DNA of 61,461 nucleotides, taken from the NCBI GenBank assembly GCA_046758505.1, contig JBHIAH010000009.1:1-61461 (forward strand), in the 5' to 3' direction. The notes under the pieces are model-generated. The model was not told the origin of the DNA. It did not search any database and worked only from the letters and a program-made list of their open reading frames with translations. Shown one piece after another: positions 11,204 through 45,868 of this stretch. The DNA is from Candidatus Methylomirabilales bacterium. GTDB lineage: Bacteria > Methylomirabilota > Methylomirabilia > Methylomirabilales > CSP1-5. The position numbers were made by a program, and so were the translations under genes. Position 1 is the first letter of the stretch. Each line of letters begins with the position of its first letter.

Positions 11204-11483
11204 GGGGCTGGGTGTCAGGGAAAGTGGTGTATCGCCGGCGCATCGGTGAGAATCCACTGCTGCCCCGCAACTGTGAGCGGTGATGAAATCCGCACAGGCC
11301 ACTGCCGAGAAGCAGCGGTCAGCAGTCAGCACAAGGTGAATTATAGATGTGCAGTTTCCTCGCTGATAGCTGACTGCCGATAGCTGACAGCTCTACGGTG
11401 GGAAGGCGCGGAGAGTAAGAGGACCCGCAAGCCAGGAAACCTGCCCAGCCCTGCGGCGTTGATGAGGCCTTCCGAGGGGAAAG
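11204..11483 (+). ncRNA. Cobalamin riboswitch 1
   Basis: AGGGAA..GGTG..AATCC..GCCCCGCAACTGT, GCCACTG, GGGAAGG, B12 box AGCCAGGAAACCTGCC; closing stem GGGGCTGGG/CCCAGCCCT; downstream CCTTCCGAGGGGAAAGG hairpin; upstream of B12 genes. Confidence 0.93.
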
Positions 11484-40036: not shown

Positions 40037-40065
40037 TTGACAGGGCGGCGGAAGTCCCCTAGAAT
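40037..40065 (+). promoter_or_regulatory. Near-consensus sigma70 promoter of the Ubl operon
   Basis: TTGACA-17-TAGAAT. Confidence 0.8.
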
Positions 40066-40106
40066 AAAAGCGTTAACTATACCGTGCTTCTGGCATAAGG
40101 GAAACC

Positions 40107-41858
40107 ATGGGTATGAGAGCGATCCCACTCTGGATGCAAGACCTCAATGAGCGGATCGAGGCAGAGACCTCAAGCCTCTTCATCCTGCACCACAATATCG
40201 CCGATTACTTTCCTCTCGGTCAGGCCTTTCTCGCCTTCCCCGCCTTTCTCGCCGACTGGCTGAGGGAGACGAGTCCCGTCATTTTCTACAATCGGTCCAC
40301 GGGCCTGCGCTTTCCCGATGAGGAGACCCAGCGCCGATTTCAGGAGGCGGCGGGTCTCGTGGTTCGTCGCGATCAGCGAGATGTGTCCTTGGAAGAGCAG
40401 CGAAGGCGGGCCTTGGTGGCATTGGGTGAGGCGACAAGTGCTGAGCCGCCCCCCCTCCCCACGCATCCCACCAAGGTTATCCCGCTCGTGGGGCAGGCCC
40501 TCCGGTCGGGGCGTCTCCGGAATGGGCGGCGGCGCGCGGTCGCTGTCCTGGAGTACGCGGAGAGTATCGCCCCGGCTGCCGATTTTTCCTGTATGAATGA
40601 GGATGATCGTACCAACCTGGTCGCCCTCCTCAGCCTCGCGACCGATCCGACGGTCCACGAGCAAGGGGGGGTGGTCCTGCTCACGGTGAGCAATCTGGCC
40701 GATCTGCACCCGGCCCTCCGGCAGCCGGGCGGTCGGGTCGAGGTGATCGAGGTCCCCCTTCCCGATGAGGCGGAGCGGCTCCAGTATATCGCGCACCTGC
40801 TGGATCAGGAGGGGGTGCGGATCGGCATGAGCGCGGAGGAGTTCGCGCGAGCGACCGCAGGACTGACCCGGCTCCATCTCGAACAGCTCTGTCGCCAGGC
40901 CAAGGCCAAGGGCGTTCCCCTGACGTTTGAAGAGATCAAGCGGCGCAAGCGGGAGATCCTGCGCCACGAGTTGTACGGGATGGTCGAGCTGGTTGAGCCG
41001 GGCTTCGCATTAGAGAGCATCGGTGGGCTCGCCGCGGTCAAACAGTTCTTCCGGGAGGTGGTCCAGGCCATTCGGGATGGGGACCTCAAGATGGTCCCCC
41101 GCGGCATTACGCTGGTGGGTCCTCCTGGGGTGGGAAAGACGGCGGTGGCCGAGGCCTTGGCAAAGGAGTGCGGCTTCAGCTTCGTCAAGATCACCAACCC
41201 CCGGGAGAAGTGGGTGGGCGCCTCGGAGCGAAACTTCTGGAAGATTCTACAGGCCCTTCGGTCGTTGACCCCGCTGGTGGTGCTGGAGGACGAGGCAGAC
41301 CAGAGCGAGCAGTCCCGGGATGAGATGAGTGGCGACTCTGGCGTGACCAACCGGCTTCGTCAGATGCGCTTTGAATTCACGGGCGACCCCACCATCCAGG
41401 GGAAGGTCCTGTGGATCCGGATCACGAACCGTCCGGACAGGCTGGATCCGGCCGAACGCCGCTCGGGCCGGTTTAGCGAGCGGATTCCTCTGCTGATGCC
41501 GGATGCGGATGAGCGGGTCGCCATCTTCACGGTCATGCCGAAGCGGTACGGCTTTGCCACCACGGCGGTCGATTTTCGGGCGATGGTGGACCTCTGCGCA
41601 CAGCGGTTCCCCGGACAGATCACGGGCGCCGACATCGAGGAGATTTCTCTCAGGGCGTACCGCCATGCCAGGGTTCGCGGGGCGACGGCAGTGGCGGAGG
41701 ACGACTACGGCTGGGCGATTGAGGATTTCATTCCCTCCCAGTCGGCGGAGTTGATCCGTCAGCAAGAGCTCATGGCAGTCGTCCACTGTTCCTCTCGTCG
41801 CTTCTTGCCCGAGCGGTACCGGGACATCGGGGTGGGGGAGATCCGGTCCCTCGGATAG
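40107..41858 (+). CDS. Classical-clade AAA+ ATPase (degenerate N-terminal module + active module)
   Basis: GPPGVGKT, pore loop EKWVG, VVLEDEAD, TNRPD, RRSGRF, GADIE. Confidence 0.92.
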   Translation: MGMRAIPLWMQDLNERIEAETSSLFILHHNIADYFPLGQAFLAFPAFLADWLRETSPVIFYNRSTGLRFPDEETQRRFQEAAGLVVRRDQRDVSLEEQRRRALVALGEATSAEPPPLPTHPTKVIPLVGQALRSGRLRNGRRRAVAVLEYAESIAPAADFSCMNEDDRTNLVALLSLATDPTVHEQGGVVLLTVSNLADLHPALRQPGGRVEVIEVPLPDEAERLQYIAHLLDQEGVRIGMSAEEFARATAGLTRLHLEQLCRQAKAKGVPLTFEEIKRRKREILRHELYGMVELVEPGFALESIGGLAAVKQFFREVVQAIRDGDLKMVPRGITLVGPPGVGKTAVAEALAKECGFSFVKITNPREKWVGASERNFWKILQALRSLTPLVVLEDEADQSEQSRDEMSGDSGVTNRLRQMRFEFTGDPTIQGKVLWIRITNRPDRLDPAERRSGRFSERIPLLMPDADERVAIFTVMPKRYGFATTAVDFRAMVDLCAQRFPGQITGADIEEISLRAYRHARVRGATAVAEDDYGWAIEDFIPSQSAELIRQQELMAVVHCSSRRFLPERYRDIGVGEIRSLG

Positions 41859-41861
41859 GGC

Positions 41862-42656
41862 GTGGAGCAGGCATCGATGGGGGAGTATATCCAGATCGAG
41901 GGAGACGTGGTTCGGCTCCTCCGGCACGGGGGCCGGGCGGGGGCGGTTGTTGACCGGGAGGTATCGCTCCGGACATTTCTTCAGGCCCTCCTCCGCGCCG
42001 CAGACGGGTCCCGCCGCCTCCCCCTTCTTCCCGTTGGGACGCGCTTCATCCTGGGCCGGGAGCCGGATCTCTTGATCGCGGTGGAGCAGCCCCCCCAGGT
42101 CCGTCACGTCACCTGGCGGCCGGGCGGGGCGCCGGGAGCGGCCCGGGATTATCCCTTGGCCTTTCCCTATATCCTCTACCTGGTGCTCTTCCACCAGGGA
42201 GCCTTCGAGGAGATGCGCATCTATTACCGCCCCGCCCCTCTCACCGCGGACAGCGATCCCCTCTACCTGTCGAACCTGTGGAATGTGTCCTCGACGGAGA
42301 CCCCCATGGCGAAGTGTCGTGCCTGTCTGCAGGGTCGGCCCCCCTTCGACGAGCTGACCCTGGCCGCCCAGGTGCGGGGCGTCATCGAGTTCTTCTGGGG
42401 GACCGGCTTCAATCGGGCGATCGACGAGAGTTGCTTCCTGCGGGCCGCAAAGCGGGATAGCCGGATTGCCACCCTGGAGGCGTGGGAGCGGGCGAGTCGG
42501 TGCGACCCCCTCTTTCCCCTCGACGTGGATTGGGAGCCGGTGGGGAAGGGTCTCAAGGAGACGGCGGAGGAGCTCATGGCCTGGCGGGGGAAACCGGCTG
42601 CGATCGAGGATGCGGCGGATCTGGCCGACCTGATCTATCGGGTTATGGAGGGGTAA
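41862..42656 (+). CDS. Prokaryotic E2-like protein (Prok-E2 family D / PRTRC protein B-like)
   Basis: PLY..L.NV....C.ACL.G followed by FFW.T.FN, as in E2-D proteins; operon context. Confidence 0.75.
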   Translation: MEQASMGEYIQIEGDVVRLLRHGGRAGAVVDREVSLRTFLQALLRAADGSRRLPLLPVGTRFILGREPDLLIAVEQPPQVRHVTWRPGGAPGAARDYPLAFPYILYLVLFHQGAFEEMRIYYRPAPLTADSDPLYLSNLWNVSSTETPMAKCRACLQGRPPFDELTLAAQVRGVIEFFWGTGFNRAIDESCFLRAAKRDSRIATLEAWERASRCDPLFPLDVDWEPVGKGLKETAEELMAWRGKPAAIEDAADLADLIYRVMEG

Positions 42657-42659
42657 GGG

Positions 42660-43328
42660 GTGTTCCCGATCTATGTGAAGGAGGCGGGATTCCGCGAGCC
42701 TGAGGAGCCGATCTACTATCTGGTGAGCCGCAGTGGGCTCTTCCAGGTCAAGCGGACCCCGGTTTTTTGCTCCACGATTCGAGTTCCGGGGCTCCTGTGG
42801 CTCGAGGAAGAGGTAGAAGGGGTGGAGTTCCTGCTTCCGGTCATCCCGGCGAAAATCCTGGGGGAAAGCATGGCCTTCTTCCGCGAGGTCTTTCGCAAGT
42901 ACCGCGCCGAGGCTGCCGTCCTCCTCTATCGCAGGGAGGCGGCGGGGGAGTACGAAATTCGCATTCCCCCCCAGCAGGTGGCGGGAGGTCATTGCCGGTA
43001 TGAGGTCGGTCCCAATCCCCCCGGCTGTCTCCGGGTGGGGACCATGCACAGCCACGGGGCAGCCGAAGCCTTTCATTCGGAACTCGATGATGTCGACGAG
43101 CAGTACGATGACGGGCTCCATGTGACCATCGGGTCTATCCACGCCAAACCCACCGTCTCCTGTTCCCTCGTCGTGGACGGCCGGCGCTTCGACCTCCGGC
43201 CCGAGGCGGTGCTCGAGGTGATGCCCTGGCAGCTGGAACCGACGATCCGGCTCGAGGATTCGGAACGGGTGACCGCCGAGCCGCCGCCCGGGGATTCGGA
43301 TCCGAGCGGCCGGCCCTCCGCCATCTAA
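42660..43328 (+). CDS. JAB/JAMM (MPN+) metallopeptidase
   Basis: Upstream Glu (RAEAAV) and HSH-x7-S-x2-D (HSHGAAEAFHSELD); DGLHVTIG. Confidence 0.9.
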   Translation: MFPIYVKEAGFREPEEPIYYLVSRSGLFQVKRTPVFCSTIRVPGLLWLEEEVEGVEFLLPVIPAKILGESMAFFREVFRKYRAEAAVLLYRREAAGEYEIRIPPQQVAGGHCRYEVGPNPPGCLRVGTMHSHGAAEAFHSELDDVDEQYDDGLHVTIGSIHAKPTVSCSLVVDGRRFDLRPEAVLEVMPWQLEPTIRLEDSERVTAEPPPGDSDPSGRPSAI

Positions 43329-43331
43329 CCA

Positions 43332-43410
43332 AGCAGTCGGCAGTCAGCAATCAGCTATCCGCACTCAGATGCTGAAAAAGCTGACCGCTGACGGCTGGGA
43401 GCTGACAGCT
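43332..43410. repeat. Heptamer-repeat hairpin (TCAGC.. / GCTGA..)
   Basis: agcagtc ggcagtc agcaatc agctatc ... gctgacc gctgacg gctggga gctgaca. Confidence 0.75.
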
Positions 43411-44094
43411 ATGCGTGAAATCAAGGTGATTGGCATTGGCGGGATTGGCTGTGCCCTGCTCCCGTTCCTGGCCCGGTATCTGAATTATCGGGGGGAGCGG
43501 GCCCGCGTCACCCTCATTGACGGGGATGAGTTCGAGCGGGCCAATGCGGACCGGCAGGCCTTTGGGACGCTGGGGAATAAGGCGAAGGTCACGGCTGCCG
43601 AAATGGCCAGACAGTTTCAGCGCCTCTCCTTCCGGGCCATCCCCGAATATATCACCGAGGCGAACATTGGCCAGTTCATCCAGGGGGGGGACATGATTTT
43701 TCTGGCGGTGGATAATCACAAGACGCGGAAGCTGGTGAGTGATTACTGCGAAAAACTGGCAACGGTGACGTTGATTTCCGGGGGGAATGATTTCACCGAC
43801 GGAAATGTTCAGGTCCATATTCGAGAGGGAGGTAAGGACCGGACCGCGCCGATCACGCAGTTTCATCCCGAGATCCGGAACCCCCGCGATCGCTCGCCTG
43901 CGGAGATGTCGTGTGAGGAGCTGATGGAGCGCGGAGCGCCCCAGCTCTTGTTTACGAATCTCGCTGTTGCGTCCGCCATGCTCAATGCCTTCTATGGCGT
44001 CCGCGAAGGGAAGCTGCGGTACGGCGAGGTCTACCTCGATATTGTCGAGGGCAAGAGTAACCCAGTCAAGCGCCAGGGAGAGGGAACGCAATGA
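43411..44094 (+). CDS. ThiF/E1-like Ubl-activating enzyme
   Basis: GIGGIG, DGDEFE..N..RQ, NKA, AVDNHKTR, SCEE...QLLFTN (candidate catalytic Cys). Confidence 0.92.
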   Translation: MREIKVIGIGGIGCALLPFLARYLNYRGERARVTLIDGDEFERANADRQAFGTLGNKAKVTAAEMARQFQRLSFRAIPEYITEANIGQFIQGGDMIFLAVDNHKTRKLVSDYCEKLATVTLISGGNDFTDGNVQVHIREGGKDRTAPITQFHPEIRNPRDRSPAEMSCEELMERGAPQLLFTNLAVASAMLNAFYGVREGKLRYGEVYLDIVEGKSNPVKRQGEGTQ

Positions 44095-44405
44095 CCGAAC
44101 CACTCAAGCAGGCGACGCGGGTTCGTGCGGGGTCCCCCACGCAGGCGCAGGAGCCGGTGCGGGTCATCTATGGGGTCCACTCGCTCGAGGTGAACATCGC
44201 GGGGCGAAGCGTGGGAGACGTCCGTGCCGCGTTGCGGCAGGCTTTGAACATCGGCCCCCAGGCGGTCGCGGTGGTCGGGGGCCGGGAGGTCGTGGAGAGC
44301 TACCTCCTGCAGGCCGGTGAGGTTTTGGAGTTTGTCCGACTGGCTGGCGAGAAGGGCGTGGGAGATCTGTGGCCGGGCCCTGGCGGTTCTGGCCGGGCCC
44401 GGTAG
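44091..44405 (+). CDS. Ubiquitin-like beta-grasp protein ending ...LEFVRLAGEKG plus a 15-aa tail
   Basis: Beta-grasp pattern (G.SV..VR..L...LNI...A.V.G......L..GE.LEF); ATG overlaps the E1 stop. Confidence 0.8.
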   Translation: MTEPLKQATRVRAGSPTQAQEPVRVIYGVHSLEVNIAGRSVGDVRAALRQALNIGPQAVAVVGGREVVESYLLQAGEVLEFVRLAGEKGVGDLWPGPGGSGRAR

Positions 44406-44480: not shown

Positions 44481-44846
44481 GTGAGGAAAGAGGGAGACGA
44501 TCGGCGGAAGTTGCCCCGATTCCGGATTATCAGCGTCGGGGGCTCCATCACAACACCGGTAGAGGCGGACGTCCTGAACCTGAGCATGGGTGGGGCACTG
44601 GTCGAGCACCAGGGTACGTTGCGTGTCGGATCCGAGTGTACCCTGAACGTTCCCCTGGCTGGCGCCCCGGTGAATATCAGGTGCCACGTGGCCCACAGTA
44701 CCGTCGACCACCGGGCGACCGGACCTGCGGGGGAGGGTCTGCTTTTTTACCGCACGGGCCTGGAGTTTCTCGAGCTTTCTCGAGAGGCCAAGGAAATCCT
44801 GGCGACGCTGATCCGCTCTTACGGCGAGGGGGGAGAGGGGGGATAA
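44481..44846 (+). CDS. PilZ domain protein
   Basis: RRKLPR (RxxxR) and NLSMGG (D/NxSxxG), GLEF. Confidence 0.85.
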   Translation: MRKEGDDRRKLPRFRIISVGGSITTPVEADVLNLSMGGALVEHQGTLRVGSECTLNVPLAGAPVNIRCHVAHSTVDHRATGPAGEGLLFYRTGLEFLELSREAKEILATLIRSYGEGGEGG

Positions 44847-44848
44847 CC

Positions 44849-45433
44849 TCAGAGAGCGAGGGGGCGCAAGAGCGTGAAGCAGATCCCGACCGACAGGGGA
44901 ACGGTGATGTTGTCATCCAGTGGCAGGGGGAGGCATTCGGTGACCGCACCGATCACGGCCCCTCCCAGGGCCACGGCGGGGTGGAAGAAGGGGAGCGTCA
45001 CCAGGAAGGCCGTCATCAGGAAGGCCCCCGTCCCCGACAGGGTCTTCCTCTGGCGCAACCGGTAGCCACCGAGGGCCTGGCCGACGACCGATGCGGCGGT
45101 GTCGCCGCAGGCGAGGACCAGGAGGGCTGCCACAGCGACGGTCCGGTCGAACACCAGAATCGTCACCCAGCAGGACAGCAGGTAATACGTGGCCCCGGTG
45201 GGACGGCTCTCCTCTCCAGGTCGCATCGCTCCGCGAAACCAGCGGAGAAACCAGTGATTCACGGCGGGAACCCACAGGCGCAGGACATCTGCCGCGAGAA
45301 AGGGAAGGCCGAGGCCGCCCAGGATGAGGAGGGCGTGCGGTTTGGTCGGGTCGAGCAACAGGTAGAGGAGAGGAATGAGACCGCCGACGAGGTGAACGAC
45401 CTTGCGAGCCGACTCGACGGATGGAAGCCGCAC
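44849..45433 (-). CDS. CTP-dependent phytol/dolichol/diacylglycerol kinase-like membrane protein
   Basis: RKVVH, GDTAASVVG, KTLSG, DDNITVP. Confidence 0.85.
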   Translation of the reverse strand: MRLPSVESARKVVHLVGGLIPLLYLLLDPTKPHALLILGGLGLPFLAADVLRLWVPAVNHWFLRWFRGAMRPGEESRPTGATYYLLSCWVTILVFDRTVAVAALLVLACGDTAASVVGQALGGYRLRQRKTLSGTGAFLMTAFLVTLPFFHPAVALGGAVIGAVTECLPLPLDDNITVPLSVGICFTLLRPLAL

Positions 45434-45868
45434 TCGTCCCCTCCGTATTCGGAATCGCCGCAACCCTGGTATTACAGGGACTGCCCGTAGCGGATTGTCT
45501 CCACGACCTCTATGATCCTCCGATAGTCCTCGATCACGTGCCGGAGGGCCGGCGTCTCCACAGGACCCGGGGGCTGCTCCATCCCTTGGGGGGCGCCTTC
45601 TCCGCACGGGTCCGCCGGACGAGTACGGATTCGAGGGCCACCGTCCCCGTGAGGGGGCTACAGCCCGTGAAGAGACTCCGGAGCGGATCTTCCCACCGTC
45701 GGAGGTTCAGATCCTCGGTTCGCCGGGCCATCCGGCCCGCCGTCAGCCGCCGGCTCTCCCCATATCATAAGGGGAGTGGGTAGTCAACGTGTTCGCCCAA
45801 GCCGTACGGGACGTTCCCCCCCCGGGTGTGGGCTTGCCGGTGCGGGAAACGGCGTCGCGTGTGGACGG

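Follow-up and report, generated by a model that had tools for sequence, protein, structure and literature searches.

A five-gene operon behind a footprinted promoter

The window analysed here is a 61,461-nt stretch of DNA from a Candidatus Methylomirabilales bacterium (GenBank assembly GCA_046758505.1, contig JBHIAH010000009.1, positions 1 to 61,461 of the forward strand). The names carried by its homologues likewise point to NC10 / Methylomirabilota. Between positions 40,037 and 44,405 it carries an operon of five genes, which encode an AAA+ ATPase, an E2-like protein (E2L), a JAB metallopeptidase, a ThiF-type E1 and the precursor of a ubiquitin-like protein (Ubl), that is, the components of a putative Ubl conjugation module together with a candidate unfoldase. 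The features of the operon are as follows.

40037-40065, + strand: sigma-70-type promoter TTGACA-17-TAGAAT, about 42 nt 5′ of the AAA start codon
40107-41858, + strand: AAA+ ATPase, 583 aa
41862-42656, + strand: E2-like protein (E2L), 264 aa from GTG, or 259 aa from ATG 41877
42660-43328, + strand: JAB/MPN+ metallopeptidase, 222 aa
43329-43410, + strand: JAB-E1 spacer of heptamer repeats forming a hairpin, which may include codons 1-14 of E1 in its longer form
43369-44094, + strand: ThiF/MoeB-type E1, 241 aa, or 227 aa from ATG 43411
44091-44405, + strand: Ubl precursor, 104 aa

The promoter agrees with the consensus at 11 of 12 positions, and is the sole site to do so among the six promoter-like sites found between 39000 and 46000, where shuffled sequences average 0.6. 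In none of six orthologous upstream regions do the two hexamers or their 17-nt distance vary, while the flanks average 55% column identity; invariant hexamers amid such flanks are the phylogenetic footprint of a promoter. The near-consensus promoter ahead of five co-oriented genes, as proposed by a first-pass annotation made from the letters of this DNA alone, is thus borne out. Among sequencing runs, none of RNA was listed as holding this DNA, and the four DNA runs listed come from one study and may be the source sample.

The same annotation had read the gene junctions as 3-nt gaps or overlaps, except for one repeat-filled spacer. The 3-nt gap between the E2L and JAB genes and the ATGA overlap of the E1 and Ubl genes stand, whereas the 3-nt gap between the AAA and E2L genes probably does not. 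ATG 41877 is more likely the E2L start than GTG 41862, because the protein collection carries the 259-aa form and the relatives start there, and the gap to the AAA stop would therefore be 18 nt. The JAB-E1 spacer is indeed filled with repeats, in which Tandem Repeats Finder (period 7) recognises two weak arrays of heptamers, one of 3.4 copies at 43332-43355 and one of 4.6 copies at 43379-43410, but it may be 82 nt long rather than 40, since E1 may start at ATG 43411, with GGGAG 9 nt 5′ of this codon.

An active D2-like motor behind a degenerate D1-like module

The ATPase matches the Pfam AAA family over residues 335-460 (3.3e-26), and its best solved relatives are archaeal VAT (3.9e-53), followed by the D2 modules of p97/Cdc48. 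Its NPREKWVGASE segment aligns to PEvlSKWVGESE of VAT. In 35 aligned orthologues the Walker A motif GPPGVGKT, the pore-loop residues W369-V370-G371, the Walker B motif EDEAD, the sensor N441 and the arginines R452/R455 are all invariant, so that the Walker motifs, KWVG pore loop and arginine fingers noted at first sight are confirmed and place the protein in the Cdc48/VAT/PAN clade. A C-terminal CSSRRFxPE motif is likewise invariant in the 35 orthologues.

The N-terminal half is also AAA-like. A profile restricted to residues 1-290 hits VAT, p97, Cdc48 and AFG2 in their AAA modules at about 1e-8, with LEYAE aligned to Walker B and the alignment running on through the sensor and lid, and with no Walker A. 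From these alignments the protein is read as two tiers (AF2 model, pLDDT 79.6), a degenerate D1-like module (residues ~1-290) followed by an active D2-like module (~295-556) that carries the KWVG pore loop. The D1-like module is probably catalytically inactive, because it lacks a Walker A and shows LEYAE at the Walker B position.

The likeness to Cdc48, p97 and VAT therefore consists in the tandem AAA modules, in a D2 that is nearest to that of VAT/p97 with the same KWVG, Walker motifs and arginine fingers, and in the genomic coupling to a Ubl conjugation set described below. The protein differs from them in its D1 without Walker A and in having no double-psi-barrel N domain of the Cdc48 type, as it opens directly with the dead AAA module; no Ufd1/Npl4-like adaptor was seen with it. 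The NCBIfam CDC48 model scores 132.2 against a cut-off of 802.65, and PAN and pup_AAA match below threshold. In one related locus (L005) the AAA and E2L genes are separate, with a TAG stop between them, and a complex prediction of the full ATPase (alignment A4) with E2L (A2), run without controls, gave an ipSAE of 0.00 in both runs.

A role as proteasome activator was also considered. The C-terminus of the ATPase is variable among the orthologues, with no conserved penultimate tyrosine of the HbYX kind, and a PF00227 search of the genome found no 20S proteasome genes, its single match adjoining an HslU-like gene (HslV-type). The role was rejected on these two grounds.

A divergent E2-like protein with one invariant cysteine

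E2L consists of a small N-terminal beta domain followed by a UBC-like core with N141 and C155 (264-aa numbering). It has no Pfam, NCBIfam or PADLOC match of its own; Pfam finds no E2 family in 19 close relatives either, and NCBIfam PRTRC_B does not match the window protein at E up to 0.1. When the AF2 model of E2L (75 sequences, pLDDT 81.3) was compared with 48,161 chains by VIA-align, 19 of the 20 top rows were titled E2/UBC enzymes, covering residues ~46-219, with a best Z of only 5.0 (rmsd 4.5 over 124 residues). Weaker rows at Z 3.7 include bacterial CdnG-E2, BubCD-BubB-BubA and Cap2. A Foldseek search of the PDB returned nothing at E up to 0.001, its best weak rows being again E2 enzymes (UbcH7 at the top, E 0.13), and the E2L profile found no solved E2 among the PDB sequences, only a chance match to DsbA (E 0.83).

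The link to known E2 proteins runs through the wider family. A profile search of 1.84 billion representatives collected 2355 clusters (50% identity) at E up to 0.001, 345 of them at E up to 1e-30. Among 149 scanned family representatives, eight match Pfam Prok-E2_D (PF14460; best 7.6e-8, 32.7 bits against a cut-off of 25) and three match PRTRC_B (TIGR03737; best 1.1e-6), and the best Prok-E2_D match falls on the very stretch that is matched by the E2L profile. Since it is the distant relatives and not the window E2L that match Prok-E2_D, the membership is transitive only. Together with the model, which resembles UBC folds, it sustains the E2-like assignment first made, and we place E2L as a probable divergent branch of a known prokaryotic E2 lineage.

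Two cysteines, C152 and C155, had first been noted. Only the latter is conserved: C155 is invariant in all 82 sequences (the window E2L and 81 homologues from the loci described below), while position 152 is occupied by Q in the Desulfobaccales type and by S, A or G in others, including S or A in the distant forms. N141 is invariant in the 30-sequence alignment A6, where the two residues are numbered N136 and C150. The conservation identifies C155 as the predicted catalytic cysteine of E2L.

Several further forms of E2L were observed. The genome of the window holds a second copy (46% identity; G000 contig C31:25366-26154, near the contig end), and a second locus with E2L paralogues occurs in NC10 genomes, arranged as E2L-UBL-E2L in five species (L018, L020, L021, L023 and L025), so that there are several E2s, and sometimes two Ubls, per E1. 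Three family members of 691-743 aa (P0259, P0268 and P0280) carry ~350-420 extra N-terminal residues of no clear Pfam family; one of them has a faint Fumarate_red_C match, so may span the membrane, and the three may be membrane-anchored E2 forms.

JAB, E1 and the Ubl precursor

The remaining three proteins had been called a JAMM peptidase, a ThiF/E1 with an SC motif and a beta-grasp protein, and the first two identities hold up, while the third protein is ThiS/MoaD-like by profile alignment. JAB matches Pfam Prok-JAB (PF14464) at 5.2e-6, 26.8 bits against a cut-off of 25, and its metal site E...HSH-x7-S-x2-D is conserved at at least 95% in 30 sequences. Its best NCBIfam match is PRTRC_A (4.6e-8, 32.8 bits), below the cut-off of 101.8, and it has an extra N-terminal domain. 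The E1 is a short single ThiF domain with no rhodanese domain (Pfam ThiF, PF00899, 9.4e-19, 67.9 bits against a cut-off of 28.1), in which DGD, VDN, R120 and the SC-motif cysteine C182 are conserved across 30 sequences, the cysteine at 95% or more. Its best NCBIfam match is PRTRC_ThiF (1.2e-14, 54.2 bits), below the cut-off of 144.75, followed by ThiF and MoeB at 1e-13 to 1e-11. The HMM searches that the first-pass annotation had proposed as a check therefore support it for JAB and E1, which pass the Prok-JAB and ThiF cut-offs, but not for the window E2L, which has no Prok-E2_D match, nor for the PRTRC models, which remain under their cut-offs.

The Ubl matches no Pfam, NCBIfam or PADLOC family. 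Aligned by hhalign to the eight ThiS/MoaD proteins of the same genome it gives a probability of 76% (E 2.3e-5), keeps in register as far as the C-terminal end, and is in this sense ThiS/MoaD-like; against PDB profiles SAMP2 and PF1061 appear at a non-significant E of ~0.6. The top clusters of an ESM Atlas search are unnamed, and in the cluster ranked seventh (score 0.92) 21% of the members carry ThiS, which is a lead only. The protein is composed of a 22-residue N-terminal tail, a ThiS/MoaD-like core that runs to AGEKG (G89), and a further tail of 15 residues. In 28 aligned homologues 22 columns are invariant, including A85-G86-E87-K88-G89, and the conserved end reads ...LEFVRLAGEKG. Beyond G89 the homologues diverge completely, with tails of 0 to ~70 residues, and 3 of the 28 end exactly at G89.

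A second kind of precursor was found in the E2L family, where 29 of 148 representatives have a Ubl domain fused in front of E2L. The K-G dipeptide is present at the junction in 29/29 fusions, at or no more than 6 residues from the end of the Ubl match. The precursor tails, like the Ubl-E2L fusions, would have to be cut behind the glycine by an endopeptidase, and JAB is probably the enzyme that both processes the Ubl and removes it from its targets. The JAB enzyme of the Bil systems has been shown to pre-process its Ubl (bioRxiv 10.1101/2023.09.26.559546), and the tails and fusions seen here mirror that step.

These three proteins might instead form a sulfur-carrier system, in which a ThiS/MoaD-type Ubl would be adenylated by the E1 and thiocarboxylated, with JAB trimming the tail, E2L serving as a sulfur relay and the ATPase as an accessory chaperone. 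The short, ThiF/MoeB-like E1 and the best alignment of the Ubl profile, to the genome's own ThiS/MoaD proteins, are in keeping with this, as is the known trimming of sulfur-carrier tails by JAB enzymes (CysO/Mec, QbsE/QbsD). However, the Ubl ends in K-G and not in the G-G shared by 8/8 ThiS/MoaD proteins of the genome, which with eight such ordinary genes elsewhere is already provided for. In the neighbourhood, defined throughout as the genes called between 35858 and 50014 (35.8-50.0 kb), a Pfam scan found no ThiG or MoaE gene, as the first-pass annotation had noted, and no rhodanese, cysteine desulfurase or biosynthetic gene is present in the operon or in this neighbourhood. The cysteine protein E2L moreover models as a UBC-like fold with links to Prok-E2_D and PRTRC_B, and its fusions to Ubl (29/148) are more in line with a conjugation enzyme than with a sulfur acceptor. 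We consider a sulfur-carrier function quite improbable, and return to the conjugation module.

The ATPase is genomically coupled to the putative conjugation module

Conservation of the AAA gene beside the module had been set beforehand as a test of the proposal. We have examined it from both sides, starting from E2L and from the ATPase. In the E2L-anchored set (78 loci, one genome per species, E2L counted with an HMM built from alignment A6), the AAA+ gene lies upstream on the same strand in 54 loci, which comprise 17/17 operon-type loci of Methylomirabilota and 37 loci of Thermodesulfobacteriota bins (Desulfobaccales, Syntrophobacterales and others). Another ten do not allow a judgement, and the remaining 14, all with at least 4 kb of upstream DNA, have no AAA+ there: seven NC10 paralogue loci (five as E2L-UBL-E2L), two of the Desulfobaccales type, and five distant ones. 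The distant five are UBL-E2L-JAB-E1 operons from Pirellulales (Planctomycetota), Verrucomicrobiota and a bin titled 'delta proteobacterium', and in two of these five genomes a full-length AAA+ homologue (27-29% identity) is found on another contig with no module gene nearby.

The converse search used the dead-D1 half of the ATPase on metagenomes and took the best 80 of 217 relatives, of which those with at least 3.2 kb of downstream DNA were evaluable. In 39/39 such loci module genes follow downstream on the same strand; E2L, JAB and E1 are all present in 25, 15 of which also have a Ubl match, seven consist of AAA-E2L only, and seven have no E2L (AAA-JAB-E1-UBL). One sub-clade (L122-L129, L139 and L141), with AAA+ proteins 78-80% identical, shows the AAA-JAB-E1-UBL order with ~100 nt between AAA and JAB, and five loci (L013-L015, L017 and L147) read AAA-E2L-JAB-E1 with no Ubl downstream.

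We have also surveyed 200 Methylomirabilota genomes at least 80% complete, including two flagged as unpublished (G031 and G038). E2L occurs in 27, and 27/27 have the N-terminal half of the ATPase at E below 1e-90 (25 of 198, and 25/25, when the flagged two are excluded); one further genome (G033) has this half with no E2L match. By family, and with the genome of the window excluded, E2L is present in 10/11 genomes of f1, 4/16 of f2, 7/19 of f7 and 0/127 of f9. In the genus of the window genome, itself again excluded, E2L is found in 10/11 genomes and the ATPase in 11/11.

A different arrangement is seen in the second phylum. In three Desulfobaccales-type genomes searched in full, JAB and an E1 orthologue (60-63% identity) are separated from AAA-E2L by megabases or lie on different contigs. 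The two genes are neighbours in two of the genomes and ~4.5 kb from one another in the remaining one; the Ubl gene is 3-5 kb upstream of the AAA+ gene on the other strand. The AAA-E2L pair thus stays together even where JAB, E1 and Ubl are dispersed. This region is syntenic in up to 30/30 genomes. A peroxiredoxin gene (AhpC/TSA, 1.4e-24; L033 5307-5807 and orthologues) lies directly upstream of the AAA+ gene in 29/30 of these loci; because the whole region is syntenic, vertical descent may account for this adjacency without any functional link.

A more distant relative was found in the 230-kb Bacillus phage vB_BceM_WH1 (L201, 178978-189664), whose gp214-gp216 match E2L, JAB and E1 in the same order and with no AAA+ (3.4e-10, 8.9e-14 and 6.2e-23, respectively, values that refer to a tiny search space). 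The product of gp211 in this phage, annotated as 'virion structural protein', contains at least four tandem copies of a segment matching the final 21 positions of the Ubl profile, at intervals of 57 residues, and looks like a poly-Ubl-like precursor. A scan of viral contigs with the E2L alignment gave six pattern matches, none of which was confirmed.

It could be argued from the five distant loci and the phage cassette, all with no adjacent AAA+, and from the two genomes with a homologue standing apart from the module, that the ATPase is no more than co-transcribed, with housekeeping work unrelated to the module, and that the Ubl module works alone. This is hard to reconcile with the module genes at all 39 evaluable AAA-anchored loci, with the ATPase in every E2L-positive genome of the 200, with the adjoining AAA+ and E2L genes in a second phylum in which JAB, E1 and Ubl have moved away, and with a single footprinted promoter before an operon whose intergenic gaps are 3-18 nt. 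Mere co-transcription seems to us the least probable of the explanations. The link of the ATPase to the module is strong among near relatives, and in this part the prior expectation was confirmed; it does not extend to the distant ones.

Relation to known systems

An operon with Ubl, JAB, E1-like and E2-like genes was described as class 6d by Iyer, Burroughs and Aravind in 2006 (PMC1779556, Table 1 row 6d), and our literature search turned up no biochemical test of this class. In the window operon, as in class 6d and PRTRC cassettes, a small Ubl and a short E1 are encoded by separate genes, as are an E2-like protein that does not have the HPN histidine of classical E2s and a JAB with an additional N-terminal domain. 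Among the NCBIfam models the JAB and E1 of the window match PRTRC_A and PRTRC_ThiF best, and distant E2L relatives match PRTRC_B and Prok-E2_D. The operon differs from PRTRC in scores far under the cut-offs (32.8 vs 101.8; 54.2 vs 144.75) and in having neither a ParB-related gene nor a mobile-element context, and from class 6d in its ATPase, since the ATPase passages of PMC1779556 tie none to that class. The first-pass annotation had set the operon apart from PRTRC. With respect to ParB and mobile-element genes, none of which lies within the neighbourhood, the distinction is correct; the module is nevertheless a distant PRTRC relative.

BilABCD systems (types I and II) likewise combine Ubl, E2, JAB and E1 with no E3 (bioRxiv 10.1101/2023.09.26.559546). 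Their E1 is a multidomain protein, with inactive and active adenylation domains and a Cys domain, as opposed to the 241-aa single ThiF domain of the window, and PADLOC finds no BilA, BilB or BilC match, and BilD only at E 9.6e-4 on E1. The word 'ATPase' does not occur in the main text of that preprint, and no partner ATPase figures in its passages on these systems. In the Bub (6E) systems E1, E2 and peptidase are encoded together (PMC11601596), and Ubl-E2 fusions like those among the window's relatives are a shared trait; a BubCD-BubB-BubA entry stands among the weak structural matches of E2L (Z 3.7). The window operon differs from these in its separate Ubl and E2 genes and in E2 and E1 candidates that keep their cysteines, and neither mention of 'AAA' in PMC11601596 concerns a partner ATPase.

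The pairing of a small tag with a classical AAA+ unfoldase is further reminiscent of the Pup-proteasome (Mpa/ARC) and archaeal SAMP/PAN systems. Here, however, the genome has no 20S proteasome, the ATPase has no conserved HbYX-like C-terminus and, unlike Pup, the tag chemistry would be of the E1/E2 type and not that of a Pup ligase. No paper that couples such a module to a bacterial AAA+ turned up in our literature search, outside of which lay subscription journals, later Burroughs/Aravind reviews and preprint supplements.

Genomic surroundings and the question of defence

Upstream of the operon lie thiolase, SDR, MaoC and CBS genes, and downstream PilZ, LysM/SLT, patatin, CutA and HtrA genes, together with one ORF of no family; none of the called genes from 35.8 to 50.0 kb is a defence or mobile-element gene by the Pfam scan.

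This bears on an anti-phage function, in which the module would tag phage or host proteins on infection in the manner of Bil or of CBASS Cap2/Cap3, with the ATPase as effector or amplifier. Those bacterial E1/E2/JAB/Ubl operons that have been studied by experiment in the literature consulted (Bil, bioRxiv 10.1101/2023.09.26.559546; type II CBASS) act in defence. The present module is found in several phyla, is patchy within its order (f2 4/16, f7 7/19), has a related E2L-JAB-E1 cassette in a jumbo Bacillus phage, and gives weak PADLOC matches to IetA (2.2e-14, on the ATPase) and to E1-E2/BilD (on E1). Against these stand the near-universal presence in the genus (E2L 10/11, AAA+ 11/11) and the Desulfobaccales-type genes, spread over three loci in a region syntenic in up to 30/30 genomes, a sign of stable vertical inheritance. 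To these may be added the surroundings just described, the failure of PADLOC to match E2L, JAB or Ubl, and an NCBIfam IteA score for the ATPase of 56 against a cut-off of 510. A defence function is a serious possibility, though in our view an unlikely one. A cellular regulatory or protein-quality role is tentatively favoured over a mobile defence island, because the arrangement is stable, partly dispersed, chromosomal and set among housekeeping genes.

Two features beside the module genes deserve a separate description. The two heptamer arrays of the JAB-E1 spacer jointly fold into a hairpin of -37.1 kcal/mol (z -4.5; 0/200 shuffles were as stable), the arms of which are tandem heptamers, (A)GCAGTC... 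pairing with ...GCTGAC. The JAB-E1 spacers of three related loci (L001-L003) also fold into hairpins, with other heptamers in the arms (z -5.7, -3.7 and -2.5), and L005 and L013 have weaker ones. In the 2.99-Mb genome there are 58 occurrences of the motif GCTGACNGCTGAC or its complement, which within the window is also found at 11318 and 17453. The motif has the look of a dispersed REP/STRR-like element and might give different mRNA stability to the two halves of the operon.

The second feature is a PilZ-domain gene (44481-44846, + strand; Pfam 6.1e-9), 75 nt 3′ of the Ubl gene and followed directly by a 252-aa ORF on the opposite strand (44849-45607, - strand) that belongs to no Pfam family. 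Three of the 17 operon-type loci (L001, L003 and L005) have the PilZ gene in this position by tblastn. It may be a hint of c-di-GMP input or mere adjacency.

A proposed tag-and-unfold pathway

Taken together, the window carries what we consider, with a confidence somewhat better than even, to be a chromosomal Ubl conjugation operon, distantly related to PRTRC and Iyer class 6d, to which a dedicated Cdc48-like AAA+ unfoldase has been added. We infer the order of events from the protein families, and keep the writer-eraser-reader set of the first-pass annotation as a proposal of the same standing. First, JAB would cut the Ubl precursor after G89 and, in the relatives, free the Ubl from the Ubl-E2 fusion. 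The short ThiF-type E1 would then adenylate G89 and may hold the Ubl on C182, from which it would pass to C155 of E2L and on to lysines of the targets, with no E3. JAB should also be able to remove the tag. The ATPase is envisaged as a hexamer in which a dead D1 ring is stacked on a live D2 ring with KWVG pore loops, and it would thread and unfold or extract the tagged proteins or, alternatively, act on a component of the pathway itself. Its substrates would not be handed over to a proteasome, because the genome has none.

Several observations weigh against this picture. The E2 assignment depends on a modest structural score (Z 5.0, Foldseek E 0.13) and on transitive homology, the window E2L itself matching no E2 family, and the Ubl fold depends on the 76% hhalign probability and on non-significant PDB profile matches (E ~0.6). 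The ATPase shows no recognisable Ubl-binding domain. As to the coupling, the AAA+ is missing from 14 E2L loci that have 4 kb or more of DNA upstream, as it is from the jumbo-phage cassette, and 7 of the 39 AAA-anchored operons have no E2L. Most of the linked loci come from about two lineages of related genomes, so that the counts measure co-inheritance and not independent events. The patchy distribution within the order (f2 and f7, with complete genomes that lack the system) fits an accessory system, possibly one of defence.

More tentatively, and with less confidence than we place in the operon itself, we propose that NC10 and Desulfobaccales-type bacteria possess a proteasome-independent tag-and-unfold pathway. 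In it a minimal E1 and a Prok-E2_D-like E2 would write a processed Ubl, and a Cdc48-like motor with a dead D1 would read the tag and remodel or extract the tagged proteins, as a housekeeping system and a bacterial counterpart, possibly a forerunner, of ubiquitin-Cdc48.

That bacterial E1/E2/JAB/Ubl operons conjugate proteins is a recent finding, made so far in the context of phage defence. The present analysis defines a large E2-like family that had no annotation of its own, with C155 as its predicted catalytic cysteine, and Ubl precursors and Ubl-E2 fusions that demand processing by JAB. If the proposal is true, the steady partnership of a Ubl module with an unfoldase would be the bacterial counterpart of the downstream half of the eukaryotic pathway, in which a motor acts on the tagged proteins, and would offer a system of five proteins, small enough for reconstitution.

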